Shown here: positions 2,893 through 13,890 of the stretch, piece by piece
Layout of the letters: each line of letters begins with the position of its first letter
Position numbering within the stretch: position 1 is the first letter of the stretch
Source: a virus
Taxonomy: Duplodnaviria; Heunggongvirae; Uroviricota; Caudoviricetes
Virus record (IMG/VR): IMGVR_UViG_2693429728_000012
Span: 1-13,971 of that record
DNA length: 13,971 nucleotides
Direction: 5' to 3' (one strand)
The notes under the pieces: model-generated
The model's input: the letters and a program-made list of their open reading frames with translations, nothing else
Told to the model about the DNA's origin: nothing
Databases searched by the model: none
Position numbers and translations under genes: made by a program

Positions 2893-3234
2893 ATGGCTAT
2901 TGAAGGCACTGCGGCGACTGTTCCATTAAGCCCCGGTGAACGCCTGAATGGACTTAATCACATTGCGGAGTTAAGGGCGAAAGTTTTTGGCCTGAATATT
3001 GAGTCAGAGCTTGAGCGGTTTATTAAAGATATGCGTGATTCACGGGATATTAATAGCGAACAAAATAAACGGGCACTGGCTGCCATATTCTTTATGGCAA
3101 AAATTCCAGCTGAACGTCATAGCATCAGCATTAATGAGCTGACCACTGACGAAAAGCGGGAGTTGATTAAAGCAATGAATCATTTTCGTGCAGTGGTGAG
3201 CTTATTTCCCAGACGGCTAACCATGCCGAATTAA
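2893..3234 (+). CDS. Hypothetical early-operon protein
   Basis: 113-aa ORF with a protein-like sequence throughout (…AELRAKVFGLNIESELERFIKDMRDSRD…); same orientation as the operon. Confidence 0.55.
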   Translation: MAIEGTAATVPLSPGERLNGLNHIAELRAKVFGLNIESELERFIKDMRDSRDINSEQNKRALAAIFFMAKIPAERHSISINELTTDEKRELIKAMNHFRAVVSLFPRRLTMPN

Positions 3235-3535: not shown

Positions 3536-3762
3536 TGGCTGATGCAATGGATCTCGTACAGCAGCGCGTTGAAGAAGAACGCCAACGCCATATCCGTGCT
3601 GCCCGTGCCAAAACGCCGGGCGTGTCCCGCGTGCTTTGCATTGAGTGTGAAGCGCCAATTCCGCCAGCACGCCGCCGTGCCATTCCGGGTGTGCAGCTTT
3701 GCATTACCTGTCAGGAAATCGCAGAGCTGAAAGGCAAACATTACAACGGAGGTGCTGTATGA
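3535..3762 (+). CDS. TraR/DksA-family C4 zinc-finger protein
   Basis: 75 aa with CIECEAPIPP…CITCQ (CxxC-N17-CxxC), a typical phage TraR-like zinc finger; AGGAGA Shine-Dalgarno; translationally coupled on both sides. Confidence 0.8.
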   Translation: MADAMDLVQQRVEEERQRHIRAARAKTPGVSRVLCIECEAPIPPARRRAIPGVQLCITCQEIAELKGKHYNGGAV

Positions 3763-4616
3763 GCACCATCCTGAAATGGGCGGGAAATAAAACTGCCATA
3801 ATGTCCGAACTGAAAAAACATCTTCCTGCTGGCCCGCGACTGGTTGAACCTTTCGCGGGTTCCTGTGCTGTGATGATGGAGACGGATTATCCCAGCTATC
3901 TGGTTGCGGATATTAATCCTGATTTAATCAACCTCTATAAAAAGGTTGCCGCTGATTGTGAATCGTTTATATCTCGCGCCAGAGTTTTATTTGAGATCGC
4001 AAACAGGGAGGTGGCTTATTACAACATAAGGCAGGAGTTTAATTACTCAACTGAAATTACTGATTTCATGAAAGCGGTATATTTCCTGTATCTCAATCGT
4101 CACGGTTACCGTGGTTTATGTCGCTATAACAAGAGCGGGCATTTCAACATTCCCTACGGTAATTATAAAAATCCGTATTTCCCTGAAAAAGAAATTCGCG
4201 CATTTGCAGAAAAGGCCCAGCGAGCAACGTTTATCTGCGCCAGCTTTGATGAAACGCTGGCGATGTTGAAGGCGGGGGATGTGGTGTATTGCGATCCGCC
4301 GTATGACGGTACGTTTTCCGGCTATCACACTGACGGCTTCACTGAAGATGACCAGTATCACCTGGCATCTGTTCTTGAACATCGGTCATCAGAAGGACAT
4401 CCGGTCATTGTTTCTAACAGTGACACATCCCTGATCCGTTCGCTGTATCGCAATTTTACTCACCACTACATCAAGGCAAAACGCAGCATCGGTGTGGCAG
4501 CTGGCGAGGGTAAATCAGCAACAGAAATCATTGCTGTTTCCGGGCCGCGCTGCTGGGTGGGATTTGATTATTCGCGTGGCGTGGATAGTTCTGCCGTGTA
4601 CGGAGTACGTGCATGA
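3759..4616 (+). CDS. dam: DNA adenine methyltransferase (Dam-like, N6-adenine, orphan)
   Basis: ATG 3759 (ATGA overlap with the upstream stop, GGAGG Shine-Dalgarno). AdoMet motif EPFAGSCAV near the N-terminus and catalytic DPPY (YCDPPYDG); N-terminus [11 protein letters not shown] is typical of Dam-family enzymes. Confidence 0.85.
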
Positions 4617-7027
4617 GTCATGCCGATATGAACAACTGCTGCAGCTTTAACGAAGCTGCCGCATCGTTCTCATGGAACAGCCCGAAAAAGGCCATTAACC
4701 CTTATCTGGACCCGGCGGAAGTTGCGCCGGTTTCTGCGCTTTCAAACCTGATCACTCTGTACGCTACTGATAACGAGCAGGAACAACTGCGCCGCGAGGC
4801 ACTGAGTGATCAGGTCTGGGAGCGTTATTTCTTTAATGAATCCCGTGATCCTGTCCAACGCGAAATGGAGCAGGATAAGCTCATTAGCCGGGCAAAGATG
4901 GCGCATGAGCAGCAGCGTTTTAATCCAGACATGGTCATTCTGACTGACGTCAACGCCCAGCCTTCCCATATCAGCAAGCCGCTGATGCAACGTATTGAAT
5001 ATTTCAGCAGCCTGGGCAGGCCAAAGGCTTATTCCCGCTATTTGCGTGAGACGATTAAGCCATGTCTGGAACGACTGGAGCATGTACGCGACAGCCAGCT
5101 ATCTGCATCTTTTCGTTTTATGGCAAGCCATGAAGGGCTGGACGGTCTGATGATCCTGCCTGAAATGAGTCAGGATCAGGTGAAACGCCTGTCTACCCTT
5201 GTCGCTGCGCATATGAGCATGTGTCTTGATGCCGCTTGTGGTGATTTGTACGCCTCCGATGATGTTAAGCCAGAAGAAATCCGCAAGACATGGGAAAAGG
5301 TGGCTGCAGAAACCCTGCGACTGGATGTCATACCGCCAGCGTTTGAGCAACTCCGCCGGAAAAGAAACCGCCGCAAACCTGTGCCTTATGAACTCATTCC
5401 GGGTTCGCTGGCGCGTATGCTGTGCGCCGACTGGTGGTATCGGAAATTATGGAAGATGCGTTGCGAATGGCGGGAAGAGCAGTTGCGTGCTGTCAGCCTG
5501 GTCAGCAAAAAAGCATCTCCCTATGTCAGCTATGAAGCCGTGATGCATAAACGTGAGCAGCGCCGTAAGTCGCTGGAGTTTTTCCGTTCTCATGAACTGG
5601 TGAACGAAGACGGCGACACGCTGAACATGGAGGATGTGGTAAACGCCAGCAGCAGCAACCCGGCGCATCGCCGCAACGAGATGATGGCCTGTGTTAAAGG
5701 CCTGGAGCTTATCGCGGAAATGCGTGGTGACTGCGCCGTTTTCTACACCATCACCTGTCCGTCACGTTTCCATTCCACGCTAAATAACGGCAGGCCAAAC
5801 CCGACCTGGACCAACGCGACAGTAAGACAAAGCAGCGATTATCTGGTCGGCATGTTTGCTGCATTTCGTAAGGCTATGCACAAAGCCGGGTTGCGCTGGT
5901 ATGGCGTGCGGGTGGCTGAGCCGCATCATGACGGCACAGTTCACTGGCACCTGTTGTGTTTCATGCGCAAAAAAGACCGCCGCGCCATTACTGCATTGTT
6001 GCGTAAGTTTGCCATCCGTGAAGACCGCGAGGAGCTGGGCAATAACACGGGGCCACGCTTTAAGTCTGAGCTGATAAACCCGCGCAAAGGAACGCCGACA
6101 AGCTACATTGCGAAATATATCAGTAAGAATATTGACGGGCGTGGTCTGGCTGGCGAGATCAGTAAGGAAACAGGTAAATCCCTGCGTGATAACGCTGAAT
6201 ACGTTAATGCCTGGGCGTCTCTGCATCGTGTTCAGCAATTCCGCTTCTTTGGCATTCCGGGGCGTCAGGCTTACCGTGAACTGCGATTGCTGGCTGGTCA
6301 GGCGGCAAGGCAACAGGGTGACAAAAAAGCAGGTGCGCCGGTACTGGATAACCCGCGCCTTGATGCCATCCTGGCTGCTGCTGATGCTGGTTGTTTTGCC
6401 TCCTACATCATGAAGCAGGGCGGCGTACTGGTTCCCCGCAAATATCACCTCATCAGAACCGCTTATGAAATCAACGAAGAGCCGACCGCCTATGGCGATC
6501 ACGGTATTCGTATTTATGGCATCTGGTCACCCATTGCAGAGGGCAAGATCTGCACTCATGCAGTGAAGTGGAAAATGGTTCGTAAGGCCGTTGACGTTCA
6601 GGAGGCGGCAGCCGACCAGGGCGCTTGCGCCCCTTGGACTCGTGGCAATAACTGTCCCCTTGCTGAAAATTTGTACCAACAAGGGAAAGACAAATCAGCT
6701 GATGGAGATACCAGAACGGATATCACCCGTATGGATGACAAGGAGTTGCACGATTACCTGCACAGTATGAGCAAAAAAGAGCGCCGGGAACTGGCAGCAA
6801 GATTACGCCTGGTTAAACCGAAACGACGTAAAGACTACAAACAGCGAATTACAGAGTATCAGCGTCAGCAGCTCGTCTATGAACTGAAGTCCAGAGGATT
6901 TGATGGCAGCGAGAAAGAAGTCGATTTGCTCCTTCGCGGTGGCAGTATTCCATCAGGAGCAGGCCTGCGTATCTTCTATCGGAACCAGCGTCTGAAGGAA
7001 GATGATAAGTGGCGGAACCTGTATTAA
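4613..7027 (+). CDS. A: Replication initiator endonuclease A (P2 gpA-type HUH rolling-circle nickase)
   Basis: 804-aa ORF, ATG overlapping the dam stop (ATGA). HUH motif HWHLLCF ([11 protein letters not shown]) and tyrosine motif YIAKYISK; size and position match P2/186 gene A. Confidence 0.9.
6627..6648 (+). other. Candidate rolling-circle origin (nick site) inside the A coding sequence
   Basis: gcgccccttggactcgtggcaa resembles my recollection of the P2 ori nick region (GCGCC..GGAGTC..TG.CAA), which lies in the 3' part of gene A; here it is about 84% into A. Recalled, not verified. Confidence 0.3.
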
Positions 7028-7180: not shown

Positions 7181-7369
7181 ATGCAGGACTATTTTTTGGA
7201 GTCTTTGAAGCTCCAGCGCATTGATTTTTTTCTTAAGCTTGTAGCGGCTAGTGAGTGTAGTGATGAAGAGAAGGGGCTGGCTCTGCAGTGGGTTTCTGAA
7301 CTGACAGATGAACTCATGGCAAAAATCAGAACCCACGAATACAACCGCTCAATGGATGTCATCAGCTGA
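7181..7369 (+). CDS. SOS-regulated small protein (possible N-terminal part or partner of a Tum-like antirepressor)
   Basis: 62-aa ORF from ATG 7181 with a strong AGGAGGAAAG Shine-Dalgarno. The ORF-track start at 7079 runs through the promoter and LexA box, so the internal start is preferred. Confidence 0.5.
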   Translation: MQDYFLESLKLQRIDFFLKLVAASECSDEEKGLALQWVSELTDELMAKIRTHEYNRSMDVIS

Positions 7370-7379
7370 GGTGACTTTT

Positions 7380-7613
7380 ATGCGCATTGAAATAATGATC
7401 GATAAAGAGCAGAAGATTAGCCAGTCTACCCTGGACGCCCTTGAATTCGAGCTTTACCGCAATCTGCGCCCCCTATATCCAAAAACGGTAATTCGTATCC
7501 GCAAAGGTAGCTCTAACGGTGTGGAACTTACCGGATTGCAACTGGACGAAGAAAGAAAACAAGTGATGAAAATTATGCAGAAAGTGTGGGAAGACGACAG
7601 CTGGCTGCATTAA
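7380..7613 (+). CDS. DinI-like protein (DinI/Tum C-domain family)
   Basis: ATG 7380 with GAGGTG Shine-Dalgarno. MRIEIMIDKEQKISQSTLDALEFELYRNLRPLYP…KVWEDDSWLH follows the E. coli DinI pattern (MRIEVTIAK…AGAIDALAGEL…ETWESADDW), recalled from memory. Confidence 0.75.
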   Translation: MRIEIMIDKEQKISQSTLDALEFELYRNLRPLYPKTVIRIRKGSSNGVELTGLQLDEERKQVMKIMQKVWEDDSWLH

Positions 7614-7825: not shown

Positions 7826-7934
7826 ATTTACCAATAATAACCTTACAATGTACACTACCTATTGAATTTTCCATAGTTGGCCTTTGGCTCTACTTACCAT
7901 CTATGTTTATGTATTTTATCAAAATGGACTAAAA

Positions 7935-9827
7935 ATGCACAATACGTACATCAAAGACTATATAGAATATTACCTTAGCCTTAAAACTGAACCTCAATAC
8001 GCCATTATGCTTAAAGGTGCTTGGGGATCAGGTAAAACTTGGTTCATTGAACGAGTTCTTGAAGAATATAAGCAAAAGCATTCAGAGTTCAAATTTCTTA
8101 AAGTGAGTTTGTATGGCGTCAACTCTATTGAGCAGATTGAAGATGAGTTCTATCGTCAACTTCATCCTATTCTATCAAACAAAGCCCTTATCTTTGGTGC
8201 AAATGTACTAAAAAATACGCTTAAGGCTACTTTCAAGATCGATTTCAATGGCGATAATAAGTCTGACGTAGATGTCAATGCCAGTGTCCCCACCATTAAT
8301 CTTAGCGACTTTAGCAGAGAACCAGATGGTTTTGTGCTGGTCTTTGATGATATCGAGAGAGCTGGTATAGATTTACCAATCTTATTTGGATATATAAATC
8401 ACTTTGTAGAAGTAAACGGATACAAAGCGATCCTGGTTGCCAATGAAGAAGAAATAATCAACAGAGAAAAGCGAATAAATAATGATGATGAGAAATCTAG
8501 CAGTGAATACATAAGAACAAAAGAAAAGCTTGTAGGTAAAACATTTGAAGTAACGTCAGATTTACATAGTGCTTGTAATATTTTCTTGGGCGTAATTAGT
8601 AGTTTACACGTAGCTAATATATTTAAAGAAGATATGCAGACCATAGAACACCTCTATGTGTCGGCGAAATATAATAATCTAAGACATTTGAGGCAGTTCT
8701 TTCTTGATGTACAACGCATCATTTCCCTTTTGGGAGATAAATATGTCAGCAACGACGATTTTATGAAAGTATTTTTCCAGCAGTTATTAATTTTCTCGAT
8801 GGAGTACCGGGGAGGGAACCTTAACTACGAGGATTTCAATTCAATCGGCAATGTAAATTATAGTATGTTTTTAGATAAAGGGCGTGCCAAAACTAAGTAT
8901 GATATGATCGTCGAGAAATATTCATCACCTGTATTAACCGAGACGTTACTGGATGGTGCGTACTGGAGAGAGCTAATCTGTGATGGAAAGGTAACGCATG
9001 ATCTTCTCGCTCAGCTGGATATTACGCGATTTTTTAGAAGCACCGATGCCCAAGCATGGGAGTATTTGTGGAACTATCGAGAACTTAATGAAACTATTCT
9101 TAATGAACAGTACGCCATTGCCAAGGATAATCTATTTTCAGGTAAGATCACTTCCTTAGGTGAACTCCTGATGACCGCGAGTATTTTGCTGGCATTGGCG
9201 AAAGAAGGTTTAACCACAGATGCTGTTGATGACATTATAAATGAGACAAAACATCATATAGATATTTATTACAATGGATTAGGACCTGAAGATATACATC
9301 AGGAGTATGCGCAAAGACATTATAATGAGTTAATGGCATGGCGTGGCTTTGGTTTTCTTGACAGGGATAGCGATGAATTCAAACTCATTATTGAGCATAT
9401 TAAGATAGCGCAGAAGAAACGGTTTGATGAATCAATTCCGGAGTTTGCATTGAAGTTCAGCGATGAGTTGCAAAGAGGAAATTTATCGTTTGTATCTGAA
9501 TTGTGTCATTCTAATAATAGGCAGCTAAATCTTCATAACGTGCCTTTTTTACACTTGGTTTCTCCTGAAGTTTTCATTGAAAGCTATAGGAAACTTGACC
9601 CAATCATCATGAGGAAACTGGCATTTAGCTTGAGGGATCGTTATTCTGATAGGGATGCCAGAACCAGACTGACCGAAGAATACAACTGGTTGATTAGCCT
9701 AAAAGAGATAGCTGTAGATTTCACTCAAAACGCAGCCAATAACTCCTTTCAGGTTTTTCATGTAAAGTTTTTTATTGACTATGCACTAACTAATGCAATC
9801 AAATTATTTACTGAGGGAACTGATTAA
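7935..9827 (+). CDS. KAP-family P-loop NTPase (full length, about 630 aa), probable accessory/defense cargo
   Basis: Walker A GAWGSGKT near the N-terminus and Walker B VLVFDDIER about 120 aa later, with a long alpha-helical C-terminal region. First in-frame ATG is 7935 (the ORF track begins at TTG 7884). Strongly AT-rich compared with flanking A and Q/P genes. Confidence 0.85.
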   Translation: MHNTYIKDYIEYYLSLKTEPQYAIMLKGAWGSGKTWFIERVLEEYKQKHSEFKFLKVSLYGVNSIEQIEDEFYRQLHPILSNKALIFGANVLKNTLKATFKIDFNGDNKSDVDVNASVPTINLSDFSREPDGFVLVFDDIERAGIDLPILFGYINHFVEVNGYKAILVANEEEIINREKRINNDDEKSSSEYIRTKEKLVGKTFEVTSDLHSACNIFLGVISSLHVANIFKEDMQTIEHLYVSAKYNNLRHLRQFFLDVQRIISLLGDKYVSNDDFMKVFFQQLLIFSMEYRGGNLNYEDFNSIGNVNYSMFLDKGRAKTKYDMIVEKYSSPVLTETLLDGAYWRELICDGKVTHDLLAQLDITRFFRSTDAQAWEYLWNYRELNETILNEQYAIAKDNLFSGKITSLGELLMTASILLALAKEGLTTDAVDDIINETKHHIDIYYNGLGPEDIHQEYAQRHYNELMAWRGFGFLDRDSDEFKLIIEHIKIAQKKRFDESIPEFALKFSDELQRGNLSFVSELCHSNNRQLNLHNVPFLHLVSPEVFIESYRKLDPIIMRKLAFSLRDRYSDRDARTRLTEEYNWLISLKEIAVDFTQNAANNSFQVFHVKFFIDYALTNAIKLFTEGTD

Positions 9828-9890
9828 CATTTTGTTGATTAACATAGGTAATATTATTAGAAGTACTAGACATGGTCAGTAAAATTATTA

Positions 9891-9924
9891 AAGTCCGCTT
9901 CGCTCGAAGCGGACTTTGTGCTTT
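9891..9924 (+). terminator. Rho-independent terminator downstream of the KAP NTPase gene
   Basis: Perfect inverted repeat aagtccgcttcg-ct-cgaagcggactt followed by tgtgcttt. Confidence 0.6.
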
Positions 9925-10045
9925 ATAAAAACGAGAGTTTTGTTTTTCAAGCGGTCATTCGGTTACGGGATTTCACTTCCCCCGTAAGTGCATGACTATG
10001 CCGCATGAGATCGCATGATCGTTTGCGGATCGTTTTTGCCAAGGT

Positions 10046-10067
10046 CCGCCAGAACTGGCGGGCTTTT
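10046..10067 (+). terminator. Second rho-independent terminator (or 3' end of a small transcript)
   Basis: ccgcca-gaac-tggcgg, a 6-bp GC stem with tetraloop, followed by gctttt. Confidence 0.45.
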
Positions 10068-10112
10068 GCGTAGATCATGCAGGTGCATGAAAACCACTAC
10101 ATAAAGTGGGCA

Positions 10113-10131
10113 GGCGTGGCGGGGATACGAG
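10113..10131. other. Candidate cos site (cohesive-end sequence) of a P2/186-like phage
   Basis: GGCGTGGCGGGGA matches the start of the 19-nt cohesive end I recall for 186/P2 (GGCG[T/A]GGCGGGGAAAGCA…), and it sits between the A-side cargo and Q where cos is expected. Downstream bases diverge from the recalled sequence. Confidence 0.4.
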
Positions 10132-10289
10132 CGCGCGCAACGAGGTGAAATAGCAAAACTCGGCACAGCCTACGGCCCGCTAGCGGCTTCAAATTGAAAT
10201 GGTGAGGTGCAGCAGCAAAAAAACCGCCCCACAGGAAGTTGTTGAGGTTGTTTATTGAGGGAATTGGCTTAAGCGGTAAAACACAAACA

Positions 10290-10318
10290 TTGCAACTTGT
10301 GCATGAAATTGATACATT
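10290..10318 (+). promoter_or_regulatory. Candidate promoter for the 223-aa unknown gene
   Basis: TTGCAA (10290-10295), 17-bp spacer, TACATT (10313-10318), about 30 nt upstream of ATG 10351, which has a GGGGTG Shine-Dalgarno-like sequence. Confidence 0.25.
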
Positions 10319-10350
10319 GTGCGTAATGTGTCTATATTGCGGGGTGTTTT

Positions 10351-11022
10351 ATGGCTTTCAGAGCGGAAGAAGCAGCAGCATCGAATTTCGAAAATGCTTA
10401 CAGATATCTAGTTCCACAAGGTTCAAATCAGGAGATGCGTTCGAAAGTTAGGGCGAAGCTCAAAGAAATTGTTGAAGAATGTGGGCCAGTAGTGGATGGG
10501 TATCCAGCATGGCACCCTTTTTTGCTGGAAAGAGATAAAGCTATTTGGGCGCCTATGACTCCCAATAATACTCCTAGCTTTAAATACCTGGACCACACGG
10601 TCTATTTCAGGAACGGCATTCTTACCTGTCCTTATGGTCATGGGGTTGATGAATTTATAGCTGGTATAAAACGTCTAAAGCACACGGATGCCCATTTCTC
10701 TATTGAGAAGATTGATGACGTTGTGCTTTATAATGACAACGCCGTCCCGTTGTTAATAAAATGCCATTGGCTTATTTCGGAAGATATGGAAGAGGATGGC
10801 ACCATTCCAGCAAAAGCAGCAATTGGATTGATGCTTGAAAGCGAGGTTCCTAACTGGCGGCATGCAGTTTATTGTGAAAATTGGGAAGATATGCGCGGGC
10901 AGTTGATGGGATATCCGCACGGTGCCAGATCATCTCTATTTGTTAATCAGCAGACAGGACAGAAAATGAAAAACTTCTGGAATCAGCTGATTAAGACCGG
11001 AATTCTTGGGGAAGAGCGATAA
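10351..11022 (+). CDS. Hypothetical 223-aa protein of unknown function (cargo gene between cos and portal gene)
   Basis: Clean ORF with a protein-like sequence and no motif I recognise; has its own putative promoter and a downstream hairpin; convergent with Q; moderately AT-rich. Confidence 0.7.
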   Translation: MAFRAEEAAASNFENAYRYLVPQGSNQEMRSKVRAKLKEIVEECGPVVDGYPAWHPFLLERDKAIWAPMTPNNTPSFKYLDHTVYFRNGILTCPYGHGVDEFIAGIKRLKHTDAHFSIEKIDDVVLYNDNAVPLLIKCHWLISEDMEEDGTIPAKAAIGLMLESEVPNWRHAVYCENWEDMRGQLMGYPHGARSSLFVNQQTGQKMKNFWNQLIKTGILGEER

Positions 11023-11074: not shown

Positions 11075-12124
11075 TTAGCTATCGTTGTTTGTGTCTATTC
11101 CCAGCGTGTAGGGCTCGAAGCGGATCACCTCTTTACCTAGCCAGTAATTCAGCTCCTGCAGCCGCTTTTGCAGCGGCATCAGTTCATTGCGGACGAAGAC
11201 ACGGCTCGCTTTTTCCACATCCCCAAAACCCCCAACATTATTCGGCATAATCCCCATCATTTGCGGTGGCACACGATGCGCCGCCATCATGTCATCCCGG
11301 CTCACGTTCTTGATGTTCAGAAACTCATCCTTCGCCGCGACTTCTGACAACGGGATGATCTGAAGCCCGTCCTTTTTGCCGTTAGGCGAGTACATAAACA
11401 GATTGCGGAAGTTACCTGGTCCTTTGGCGCTTTTCATCGCATTGCGGAGGTTGTTCACATCCTCCTGGTTTTGCGCGGCATCGGTCATGTACATGATGAA
11501 GCCTGCATGACTGCCGTTAATGTAATACTTTCGGCGGAACAGCGTGGCGGACTCGTTGAGCAGGGCTGACGGAATGGCAGAAAGATAACCTGGCAGGCCG
11601 TAGATCTCCTGGTTGATGTCCGGTTCCATCAGATGAAAGATGCTGCCTTTCGTAAACTGATACGGCTGCGTGGTCATGCCGTATTGCACAAACCAGTAGG
11701 TATCCAGGTCTAACCCGCGTCGGGTGTATTTTGCCAGGGCCGGTTCAAGGACGATAACTTCACCGAAGCGGTTCGTGCGTTTCTCCAGGTAGGCGTTACC
11801 AAATACCAGATAGTCCTGCACAAAACGTGAAAAAGCCTGCTGGCTGAGCAGCGGGTGAGGGATGTAGGTGCTGGTCAGAATGTTGCACTTTACTGCAATC
11901 GGGGAACTGTGATGCACGGCGGCGCGAAAGGTGCGCGCCAGCCCGTCGAAACTCACTGGCGGCTCATACCAACGATCTGTCTGTACGCATTCCACATAGT
12001 CCAGCAGTTCGCGGCGGTCCAGAACAGGAACGGGATCACCGAAGCTGAATGCTTCGGCTGAAGTCTGGCTTTTATGCTGGATCTGGTTCGTCGACGCAGC
12101 GCGGTTCTTCTTACTCTTTCCCAT
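11075..12124 (-). CDS. Q: Portal (capsid portal/head completion) protein, P2 gpQ-like
   Basis: About 349 aa, N-terminus MGKSKKNR…; size, orientation and adjacency to the terminase match P2 Q. ATG 12124..12122 overlaps the P stop (TGATG); the ORF-track start at 12127 is TTG. Confidence 0.85.
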   Translation of the reverse strand: MGKSKKNRAASTNQIQHKSQTSAEAFSFGDPVPVLDRRELLDYVECVQTDRWYEPPVSFDGLARTFRAAVHHSSPIAVKCNILTSTYIPHPLLSQQAFSRFVQDYLVFGNAYLEKRTNRFGEVIVLEPALAKYTRRGLDLDTYWFVQYGMTTQPYQFTKGSIFHLMEPDINQEIYGLPGYLSAIPSALLNESATLFRRKYYINGSHAGFIMYMTDAAQNQEDVNNLRNAMKSAKGPGNFRNLFMYSPNGKKDGLQIIPLSEVAAKDEFLNIKNVSRDDMMAAHRVPPQMMGIMPNNVGGFGDVEKASRVFVRNELMPLQKRLQELNYWLGKEVIRFEPYTLGIDTNNDS

Positions 12125-13890
12125 CAAAAAATCTCCACAATATTGCTGGTATTGGCGGACTCGCCCTGCAGCGGTTCGTTAAACAGTGCGTGCATGGTTG
12201 CCCAGGCCAGATCGGCATGGCTGGCTTCTTCGCTGCGGCTGGCTTCATAGGTCGGGCGGTTGCCGCTGGCGGTGGTGGCGCGACGGATTGCCATAAATGA
12301 CTGCGCTATGTCGGTGTGTCCGGCGTCAAACTCCAGACGGCGGTGACTGATAATGTCGTAGGCCTTGAGTACCAGGGCGTTTTTAACGTTGGGGTTGTAG
12401 ACAAACTCCCGGACGGCTGGAAAAAACGCTTTCACGTTCTCGTAAACCCCGTGACCAACGCCGGTTGAGTCGATACCGATATAAGTCACGTTGTACTGTT
12501 CGGTAAGTTTTTTGATGGCGTCAGCCTGGGCGCGGAAGTCCATCCCGCGCCACTGGTGACGCTCAAGAATGCGGAACTTACCACCCGGCACGGCTGGCGG
12601 TGCCACCACCACGCATCCAGCGCTGTCGCCGTTTTGCGTACCTTTTGCCGGGTCATAACCGATCCACACTTCGCGCCAGCCAAACGGGCGCAGTGCCAGT
12701 GCATGAAAGTCGGTCCAGACTTCCCAACTGTCCACCATGCACGCCTGCAGCTCGCTGAGCGGAAACACGGACGCGAGATCGTCCACAAACTCGCACATCA
12801 GCAGGTTCTGGTATTCGTCCGGGCTGTACTCCATGCGTAGCTGGTCGAGGTCGAACAGGTTACAGCCGCCGCGCACCGCATCTTCCACGGTGACTATCTG
12901 GCGGTACTGCCCGTCTGCGCACAGCAGGCCGGGGGCTAGATTGCTGTGGGACAGGTCGATGTCCACCTTATCGGCTTTGTTGCGCCCACGGTTGAACAGC
13001 GCACCGGACCAGAACGGATAAGCACTGTGTGTCAGACTGGATGGCGTGGAAAAATAGGTTTGTCGCCATTTTTTGTGAATAGCCATACCGGAAGCCACTT
13101 TGCGCAGCTCCTGGAATTTCGGTATCCAGAAATATTCATCCAGATACAGGTTGCCGTGGTAACTCTGGGCCGTGCGGGCATTGGTGCCGAGGAAGTAAAG
13201 CGTGGCCCCGTTAGGAAGCACCATCGGATCGCCTTTCAGCTCCACCTCCACTTCTTTGGCAAAGTCGATGATGTACTGTTTAAAGACGTGGGCCTGAGCC
13301 TTGCTGGCAGAAAGGAAAATCTGGTTACGCCCGGTCAGCAGGGCGTCAATCAGGGCTTCACGGGCAAAGTAAAAGGTCGCGCCGATCTGGCGTGACTTCA
13401 GCAGGTTGCGGATGCGGTTGGTTTTTCCGGCTTCCCACCAGTGGCGCTGGTAGTTGAACATAGAGGAATTGAAGATTTCTTCCAGTTTCTCAATCTGTTC
13501 ATCGGTGAAAACATTCTTTTCCGGCTGACGACGTGGGCCTTTGTTGCGGTTGGCAACGTTAGGGTTTAAGTCGGCTTCGTTGCCGCCATTGTTAAACTTG
13601 CCGATCCGCGCGTGGCGCTCAGACTGGCGTGCCAGCAGGTCAATTTCTTTGAAATCTTTCCCTTCTTTGTGCTCCTTCATAATGAGCTGGCAGTAGCGTG
13701 CGGCGGTGGTGAGCTGCATCTGATCCAGCGGCCCATAGTCACCCCACTTGTCGCGTTTTTTCCAGCTGTGAACGGTTGCAACTTTCTCGCCCAGCATTTC
13801 AGCAATGCGGGCGACGCGGTATCCCTGAAAGTACAGCAGCATGGCCTGCCGACGGGGATCGAGGTCTGCGGGTGTCAGTGTGGTGTTCAT
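12124..13890 (-). CDS. P: Terminase large subunit (ATPase/nuclease), P2 gpP-like
   Basis: 588-aa ORF from ATG 13890; size and position upstream of Q are characteristic of P2-like terminase P, and the sequence is protein-like throughout. Confidence 0.85.
   Translation of the reverse strand: MNTTLTPADLDPRRQAMLLYFQGYRVARIAEMLGEKVATVHSWKKRDKWGDYGPLDQMQLTTAARYCQLIMKEHKEGKDFKEIDLLARQSERHARIGKFNNGGNEADLNPNVANRNKGPRRQPEKNVFTDEQIEKLEEIFNSSMFNYQRHWWEAGKTNRIRNLLKSRQIGATFYFAREALIDALLTGRNQIFLSASKAQAHVFKQYIIDFAKEVEVELKGDPMVLPNGATLYFLGTNARTAQSYHGNLYLDEYFWIPKFQELRKVASGMAIHKKWRQTYFSTPSSLTHSAYPFWSGALFNRGRNKADKVDIDLSHSNLAPGLLCADGQYRQIVTVEDAVRGGCNLFDLDQLRMEYSPDEYQNLLMCEFVDDLASVFPLSELQACMVDSWEVWTDFHALALRPFGWREVWIGYDPAKGTQNGDSAGCVVVAPPAVPGGKFRILERHQWRGMDFRAQADAIKKLTEQYNVTYIGIDSTGVGHGVYENVKAFFPAVREFVYNPNVKNALVLKAYDIISHRRLEFDAGHTDIAQSFMAIRRATTASGNRPTYEASRSEEASHADLAWATMHALFNEPLQGESANTSNIVEIF

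Follow-up and report, generated by a model that had tools for sequence, protein, structure and literature searches.

A predicted cos site of the Fels-2 type in the non-coding gap of a P2-family prophage of Escherichia coli

Results

Gene content of the window and its non-coding gap

The window, that is the whole stretch of 13,971 nucleotides that was analysed, is part of a Fels-2-like prophage of the P2 family (Peduoviridae) in E. coli. Its gene products were assigned by protein-family scans and the genes follow each other in the order Dam, gpA, DinI, KAP-NTPase cargo, a 523-bp gap, an orphan ORF, portal Q and terminase P (Table 1). The 1.7 kb surrounding the gap are 99.9% identical to the corresponding DNA of E. 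coli NC101, NGF1 and 22 further complete genomes (n = 24), and in these near-identical chromosomes RefSeq annotates no features between the KAP NTPase gene and the gene for a hypothetical protein at 10351-11022.

The gap had been described as about 430 bp lacking credible ORFs. Indeed, no annotated or credible gene lies inside it, but it extends from 9828 to 10350 and measures 523 bp. A 43-aa and a 56-aa ORF on the minus strand extend across it but were rejected as genes, their frames being open in only 51/117 and 61/117 related loci, respectively. Several public phage records carry 'hypothetical protein' genes, and in one instance a DinI gene, over the block described below as the cos module (Yersinia phage MLG42 at 3018-3161, NC_049342, MK433578 and PV052273). 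Since the frames are not conserved, these gene calls are probably over-annotation.

Table 1. Genes and sequence features of the window. Signed positions are counted from the putative top-strand nick, nucleotide 10113 being +1.
Feature	Coordinates	Position from nick	Strand	Evidence or remarks
Dam-family methylase	3699-4616		+	TIGR00571, 321 bits
Replication protein gpA	4613-7027		+	protein-family scan
DinI-like protein	7308-7613		+	protein-family scan
KAP P-loop NTPase	7884-9827		+	protein-family scan
Two-way terminator hairpin of the KAP NTPase gene	9889-9918		both strands called	13 bp, ∆G -20 kcal/mol, z = -5.8
Whole conserved putative cos module	9985-10149		+	sole part of the 9828-10350 gap with homologues elsewhere
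Distal box 1, TGCAT	9989-9993	-124	+	65/105 phage loci, 8/9 satellite loci; P2, 186, P4
Distal box 2, CGCAT	10002-10006	-111	+	85/105 phage loci, 9/9 satellite loci
Distal box 3, CGCAT	10012-10016	-101	+	90/105 phage loci, 9/9 satellite loci
GATC-N7-GATC pair	10017-10031 (sites 10017-10020, 10028-10031)	-96 and -85		specific to the Fels-2-type lineage
Second hairpin with T-run	10041-10067		+	∆G -20.9 kcal/mol, z = -4.06 (fold 10041-10066)
Palindrome GCCAG-AA-CTGGC, hairpin core	10048-10059	about -65 to -54	+	family form GCCAG-NN-CTGGC
Proximal inverted box ATGCA (TGCAT on minus)	10077-10081	-36	-	75/112 loci, -40 to -31 bin
Proximal direct box TGCATGAAAACC (TGCAT-N-AAAACC)	10084-10095	-29	+	104/105 phage loci, 9/9 satellite loci
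Left nick flank AAAGTGGGCA	10103-10112		+	equal to the terminal 10 nt at the right end of 186
Left nick flank core AAG(C/T)GGGC(A/G)	10105-10112	-8 to -1	+	family register
19-nt cohesive-end sequence (putative cosN) GGCGTGGCGGGGATACGAG	10113-10131	+1 to +19	+	homology to 186, SEN8
Right nick flank CGCGCGC, family (T/C)GCGCGC	10132-10138	+20 to +26	+	near-invariant
Portal (Q)	11075-12127		-	protein-family scan
Large terminase (P), gpP	12124-13890		-	protein-family scan

A conserved module between variable cargo genes

When 111 related loci were compared with the window by BLAST, nearly all of them matched 10073-10142 and between 38 and 50 also matched 9985-10072, with almost no homology outside 9985-10150. 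Over approximately 9987-10149 the window shows 92-97% identity with Fels-2-like phages of E. coli, Klebsiella and Salmonella. The interval originally proposed as the packaging region, 9931-10240, does hold this conserved module but includes unrelated cargo-side DNA on both sides. Ungapped identity to the window over -30 to +26 amounts to 80% for 186, 75% for P2, 75% for P4 and 96% for SEN8, so that the homology to the 186 and P2 cos regions that was to be looked for by alignment is present; past -130 and past +27 identity falls to 25-35%, the random level. According to the passages of PMC5694545 and PMC9594776 that cite Ziermann and Calendar 1990, a core of about 55 bp is common to P2-type phages and P4. 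The window agrees with this, in that identities of 75-80% are found over -30 to +26, the flanks are random and 10073-10142 is near-universal.

The cos site of P2-like phages has been described as a conserved island between gpA and gpQ, surrounded by a hotspot of variable genes that are often directed against phages (PMC9122126). Here too, variable cargo directly flanks the conserved block, homology ending at 9985 and 10150, and the block lies between the gpA-side accessory region and the convergent Q and P genes, a layout equal to that of 186, P2, Fels-2 and SEN8. The KAP NTPase directly to the left gives a full-length match to the PADLOC candidate defence family PDC-S49 (E = 1e-160); it also matches a PHROG of unknown function. 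On the other side, between cos and the portal gene, a 223-aa ORF (10351-11022, plus strand) is preceded by a promoter-like site at 10309-10338 and corresponds to the RefSeq hypothetical protein WP_000885505.1. Searches of Pfam, NCBIfam, PHROGs, PADLOC, PDB and 50,697 phage records gave no match to it. The slot between cos and Q is empty in 186 and P2 and filled with unrelated genes in Fels-2 and SEN8. Being orphan cargo of a cos-adjacent hotspot, the 223-aa ORF is a candidate accessory or defence gene.

The predicted cut site and 19-nt cohesive end

The right end of 186 stops with ...AAAGTGGGCA and its annotated cohesive end begins with GGCGTGGCGGGGA. The window has the same junction: GGCGTGGCGGGGA, the sequence singled out as cos-like in the original prediction, stands at 10113-10125 and is identical to the first 13 nt of the annotated 186 end. 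The 19-nt cohesive-end sequence was therefore placed at 10113-10131. When the right and left ends of 186 are joined, they read ...CATAAAGTGGGCA / GGCGTGGCGGGGAAAGCAT / TGCGCGC and align base for base with ...CATAAAGTGGGCA / GGCGTGGCGGGGATACGAG / CGCGCGC of the window. Bases 1-19 of the GenBank record of 186 (GGCGTGGCGGGGAAAGCAT) are annotated as cos, the notes in the records of 186 and PsP3 place the top-strand cut at the 5′ end and the bottom-strand cut at the 3′ end of the 19-mer, and the P2 record annotates cosL and cosR. Cutting of the P2 and 186 cos by terminase yields 19-nt 5′ cohesive ends, and P4 is packaged via the same site (annotations of the 186 and PsP3 records; reviews including PMC9122126, PMC5694545 and PMC9594776).

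The 19-mer of the window matches the 186 cos at 15 of 19 nucleotides; the differences fall on four of the six positions 14-19. It recurs exactly as positions 1-19 of Salmonella phage SEN8 (Felsduovirus), whose last base aligns with nucleotide 10112 of the window. There it is annotated as 'putative cos site', the sole annotation that we found for this subtype. The sequence 10113-10131 is also homologous to the P2-family 19-mer GGCG(A/T)GGCGGGGAAAGCA(C/T) and is the commonest of nine variants, occurring in 42 of the 120 IMG/VR loci used for comparison. These loci were gathered with a pattern covering -7 to +13 of the nick, so that invariance over those positions is a matter of construction. The near-invariance of the right flank and of the proximal direct box is real, because both lie outside the search pattern. 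Taken together, the junction matches the annotated cos of 186, P2, PsP3, P4 and SEN8, as anticipated by the proposal that this is a packaging region made of cos and terminase recognition repeats.

The nick flanks show two-fold symmetry when both strands are read directly, the top strand having GTGGGCA and then the cut, the bottom strand GCGCGCG and then the cut. A symmetric pair of nuclease subunits with cuts 19 nt apart would require just such an arrangement. By homology, the top-strand cut would fall between 10112 and 10113; the bottom-strand cut, placed by alignment alone, would fall between 10131 and 10132. A different 19-mer, GGCGTGGCGGGGAGAGCAT, was seen in five of the nine P4-like satellite loci and in 0/105 phage loci of the IMG/VR sample, and the ATACGAG type of the window in none of the nine satellites (recognised by sid, delta or psu genes). 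This distribution may reflect matching between helper and satellite, or simply sampling.

YGCAT boxes in fixed register

At least five copies of GCATGA or its complement had been noted in this segment. There are exactly five in 9990-10090, four on the plus strand (9990, 10003, 10013 and 10085) and one on the minus strand (10075), as against about 0.08 expected in 101 bp (Poisson P ~3e-8). From the alignments, these repeats read as the local spelling of a set of YGCAT boxes, the copy at 9990 overlapping distal box 1. The distances of the YGCAT boxes from the nick, -124, -111, -101 and -29, are identical in the reference genomes of P2, 186 and P4, and the repeats keep a fixed register across the 120 related loci including P4-like satellites, in keeping with a packaging region. 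Phage loci (105) were those with P2-type genes, satellite loci (nine) those with a P4-type sid, delta or psu gene and no phage genes. The phased-YGCAT criterion (9989, 10002, 10012 and 10084 in the window) was derived in the present analysis and is not a published one. In the proximal direct box TGCAT-N-AAAA is near-invariant and part of the core common to satellite P4, and the positions of the inverted ATGCA box have a high information content in the family alignment.

P4-type satellites have been reported to share with their helpers only the cos region (PMC9122126). No other comparative observation speaks as strongly for the boxes being part of the packaging signal as the presence of all four in register in satellites. 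Because of their fixed distances from the nick in P2, 186, P4 and the phage and satellite loci, the YGCAT boxes are probable terminase recognition elements; a requirement of the distal boxes for packaging is suggested by the comparative evidence. A full-text literature search, which did not extend to Ziermann and Calendar 1990, gave no usable description of TGCAT boxes or of the DNA end that is packaged first.

The 10-mer GTGCATGAAA of the proximal box (10083-10092) recurs 216 bp downstream at 10299-10308. This second copy lies in non-conserved cargo DNA, directly next to the -35 hexamer (10309-10314) belonging to the promoter-like site of the 223-aa ORF; about 0.1 repeats of this type are expected by chance in 500 bp.

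Hairpins, palindromes and a pair of GATC sites

The tandem terminators of the original prediction are both there as hairpins, but a consensus terminator scan calls the first only and makes no call at 10041-10067. The first hairpin, 9889-9918, bounds the cos module without being part of it and is not conserved in the 111 related loci. The second is followed by only TTTT, three T of which pair with an upstream AAGG in the minimum-energy fold, and this is probably why it escapes a terminator call. Among 102 unique sequences its GCCAG/CTGGC core occurs at a fixed distance from the nick in about half. Variants of the arms are found (GCCAT, CCGGC, GCGGC and ATGGC) for which the opposite arm does not compensate, and no covariation was detected in the hairpin among these sequences. 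A terminator-like form with at least 7/8 pairs and a T-run is present in 23 of the 102, all of them in the lineage of the window. The second hairpin is thus a family palindrome at the DNA level, which has been extended to a terminator-like form in this lineage only. In the stretch of Fels-2 that leads from the last upstream gene to the cut site it is the sole candidate plus-strand terminator, and in 186 a separate terminator, t95b, is annotated a short way upstream of the boxes. It is plausible that the second hairpin also shields the cut site from transcriptional read-through.

Two other structures were set aside. The perfect 10-bp palindrome CCGCTAGCGG noted originally exists at 10177-10186, but such palindromes are at chance level in the window (10 observed against 14 +/- 4 expected) and this one lies outside the conserved 9985-10149 module in unrelated DNA, so that it was rejected as part of the cos element. 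A minus-strand 'terminator' at 10109-10094 is weak (-6.2 kcal/mol, z = -1.9) and built of the conserved nick-flank motif.

One feature alone is mildly unusual, the GATC-N7-GATC pair, which is located between the distal boxes and the palindrome with its two sites one helical turn apart. GATC occurs at 10009, 10017, 10028 and 10073, four sites in 68 bp with 0.26 expected (P = 1.6e-4). Across 119 loci the pair is all-or-none: both sites were found in 45, neither in 73 and one site in a single locus. It is kept across 11 different 7-nt spacers, and its two sites are present in 40 and 41 of the 43 unique sequences of the lineage. Of the Dam-positive loci 20/24 have the pair, compared with 3/26 Dam-negative loci (those with enough DNA in which no Dam gene was found). 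This association, although strong in the raw numbers, is confounded, since it follows the lineage and has exceptions both ways, and it should be taken as a hypothesis, not as a finding.

Discussion

Given the homology of the junction, the register of the boxes and the position between the gpA-side genes and Q, we are almost certain that the stretch is an ordinary cos (DNA-packaging) site of an integrated Fels-2-type P2-family (Peduoviridae) prophage. Sites of the P2/186/P4 type, the Fels-2 subtype included, are a long-known class of element.

The homology, position and register of the elements suggest a packaging mechanism in which we infer the binding of proteins to the elements, the exact bottom-strand cut and the terminator activity. 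After induction and replication, the phage terminase would recognise the module 9985-10138 and introduce two nicks 19 nt apart, at 10112/10113 in the top and 10131/10132 in the bottom strand, in each case immediately 3′ to a G(C/T)G(C/G)GC(A/G) half-site of the strand that is nicked. The product would be a linear genome with 19-nt 5′ cohesive ends. Recognition would most likely occur via the phased YGCAT boxes, with direct boxes at -124, -111 and -101 spaced by about one helical turn and an inverted and a direct box paired at -36 and -29. As seen from the portal and terminase genes the boxes lie beyond the nick, in other words in the right-end part of the mature chromosome. A further element at a fixed distance is the GCCAG-AA-CTGGC palindrome, and the hairpin and short T-run of this lineage would probably also stop rightward transcription before it reaches the cut site. 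The boxes could be bound by the small subunit gpM, which is encoded outside the window, or by gpP through its helix-turn-helix-like N-terminal domain. This domain, Pfam Terminase_5, comprises residues ~11-68 of gpP and is matched weakly by sigma-70 region 4 and a small-terminase model, and on account of it the large subunit may itself help to read cos DNA. The IHF consensus WATCARNNNNTTR, allowing at most one mismatch, has no match in 9985-10150 and is not enriched in the window.

The hairpin at 10041-10067 could also be understood in terms of transcription alone. The original prediction had kept open a small RNA gene, the transcript of which would start somewhere in 9920-10040 and end at this hairpin, with RNA function accounting for the conservation. 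A strong hairpin followed by TTTT, an RNA fold of 9985-10075 that is better than that of shuffled sequences (z = -3.1) and 92-97% conservation of the block within the lineage would fit such a gene. However, the z-score of the fold comes from the one hairpin, the plus strand between the hairpins (9920-10045) has no sigma-70-like promoter, the only good site in the scan being the one at 10309-10338 that serves the downstream ORF, and an Rfam scan of the whole window at E <= 1 gave no match anywhere in the 9828-10350 gap. Moreover, conservation is tied to the register of the nick and is common to P2, 186 and P4, whose hairpin lacks the T-run or is absent, and the changes in the palindrome arms are non-compensatory in a structure that is terminator-like in only 23/102 unique sequences. 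We find a small RNA gene hardly credible. Another reading is that of a transcriptional insulator: the hairpins at 9889-9918 and 10041-10067 would end the rightward early and cargo operon, the repeats would be incidental and the ~55-bp core alone would package. Both hairpins are stable, Fels-2 has no other plus-strand terminator from its last upstream gene to the cut site, 186 has t95b just upstream of its boxes, and a 55-bp core common to P2 and P4 is on record in the literature (PMC5694545 and PMC9594776). A terminator role leaves unexplained, however, why the three distal boxes hold their exact positions in satellites and helpers that are otherwise unrelated, and the T-run is absent from most of the family. 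In addition, one study saw the transduction of P2 cosmids rise more than 10,000-fold when the cos flanks were longer (PMC9594776). We therefore consider it rather unlikely that the segment is an insulator with a minimal core, and an insulating function would add to the cos reading and not replace it.

Even as a cos site, the sequence could have decayed in a cryptic prophage to a remnant that can still be recognised but is not cut any more. Only 14 kb are visible and the prophage could be defective elsewhere, and at 10026, 10045 and 10107, three positions that are well conserved otherwise, the window departs from the lineage consensus. Against this, 186 likewise has a T at the position of 10107, no box is damaged and neither is either nick flank or the 19-mer, the ORFs of gpA, portal and terminase have their full length and match their families strongly, and the same arrangement is present at 99.9% identity in 24 complete E. 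coli genomes. Decay of the site seems distinctly improbable to us.

We have also considered whether the GATC pair makes packaging depend on the methylation state of the DNA, in a lineage that usually encodes its own Dam. This could come about through methylation-dependent binding or cutting by terminase, as at P1 pac, or through SeqA binding to hemimethylated GATC DNA. Enterobacterial hosts carry Dam anyway, and we know of no cos phage for which methylation control of packaging has been described. We regard such a dependence as improbable.

A cos site at 10113-10131 would fix the mature-genome ends of this E. coli prophage and account for the 523-bp 'empty' gap, and the KAP NTPase and the 223-aa orphan would thereby be placed as cargo in a known cos-adjacent hotspot. 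Beyond annotation its importance is small. The map of boxes kept in fixed register by helpers and P4 satellites could serve as a practical guide for the design of P2- or P4-based cosmids, and would predict which elements a Fels-2-type helper can mobilise.

Comparison with known packaging sites

The P1 pac site is a cluster of Dam-methylated GATC-containing hexamers and is controlled by Dam. It resembles the present site in that a phage with its own Dam methylase has clustered GATC sites within its packaging signal. P1 is an unrelated phage, however, and packages by the headful rather than from cos, and for the cos of the window a role of methylation would be a hypothesis only. The likeness to lambda cos (cosQ-cosN-cosB) concerns the architecture, a partially two-fold-symmetric nicking site next to a phased array of short repeats that presumably positions the terminase. 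The sequences are not homologous, overhangs are 19 nt in the type of the window and 12 nt in lambda, and the module of the window has no IHF consensus site. The analogy with cosB is imperfect, because the array, unlike cosB, is separated from the terminase genes by the nick.

Much closer are the sites of 186 and PsP3 (Eganvirus) and P2 (Peduovirus), with cos between the gpA-side accessory genes and the portal gene Q, the left flank AAAG(T/C)GGGC(A/G) and the right flank GCGCGC, and, in 186, the same first 13 nt of the cohesive end. The YGCAT boxes of 186 and P2 are at -124, -111, -101 and -29, as in the window. The window differs from these two phages in positions 14-19 of the cohesive end, which are TACGAG as opposed to AAGCAT in 186 and AAGCAC in P2, in having CGCAT and not TGCAT as boxes 2 and 3, and in carrying an extra gene between cos and Q; in 186 and P2 the GATC-N7-GATC pair is missing and the palindrome is not extended to a terminator-like form. 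The putative cos of Felsduovirus (SEN8, Fels-2) has the identical 19-mer, the GATC pair and the hairpin, and SEN8 is 96% identical to the window over -30 to +26 and 87% identical over -130 to +26. Differences are limited to the flanking cargo genes, and the annotation of the SEN8 site is itself 'putative'.

P4 has a P2-type 19-mer and no terminase genes, using those of its helper. Satellites are the only elements in this comparison that otherwise share nothing with these phages. P4 has the four YGCAT boxes, a remnant of the palindrome, the nick flanks and the GCGCGC right flank at distances identical to those in the window.
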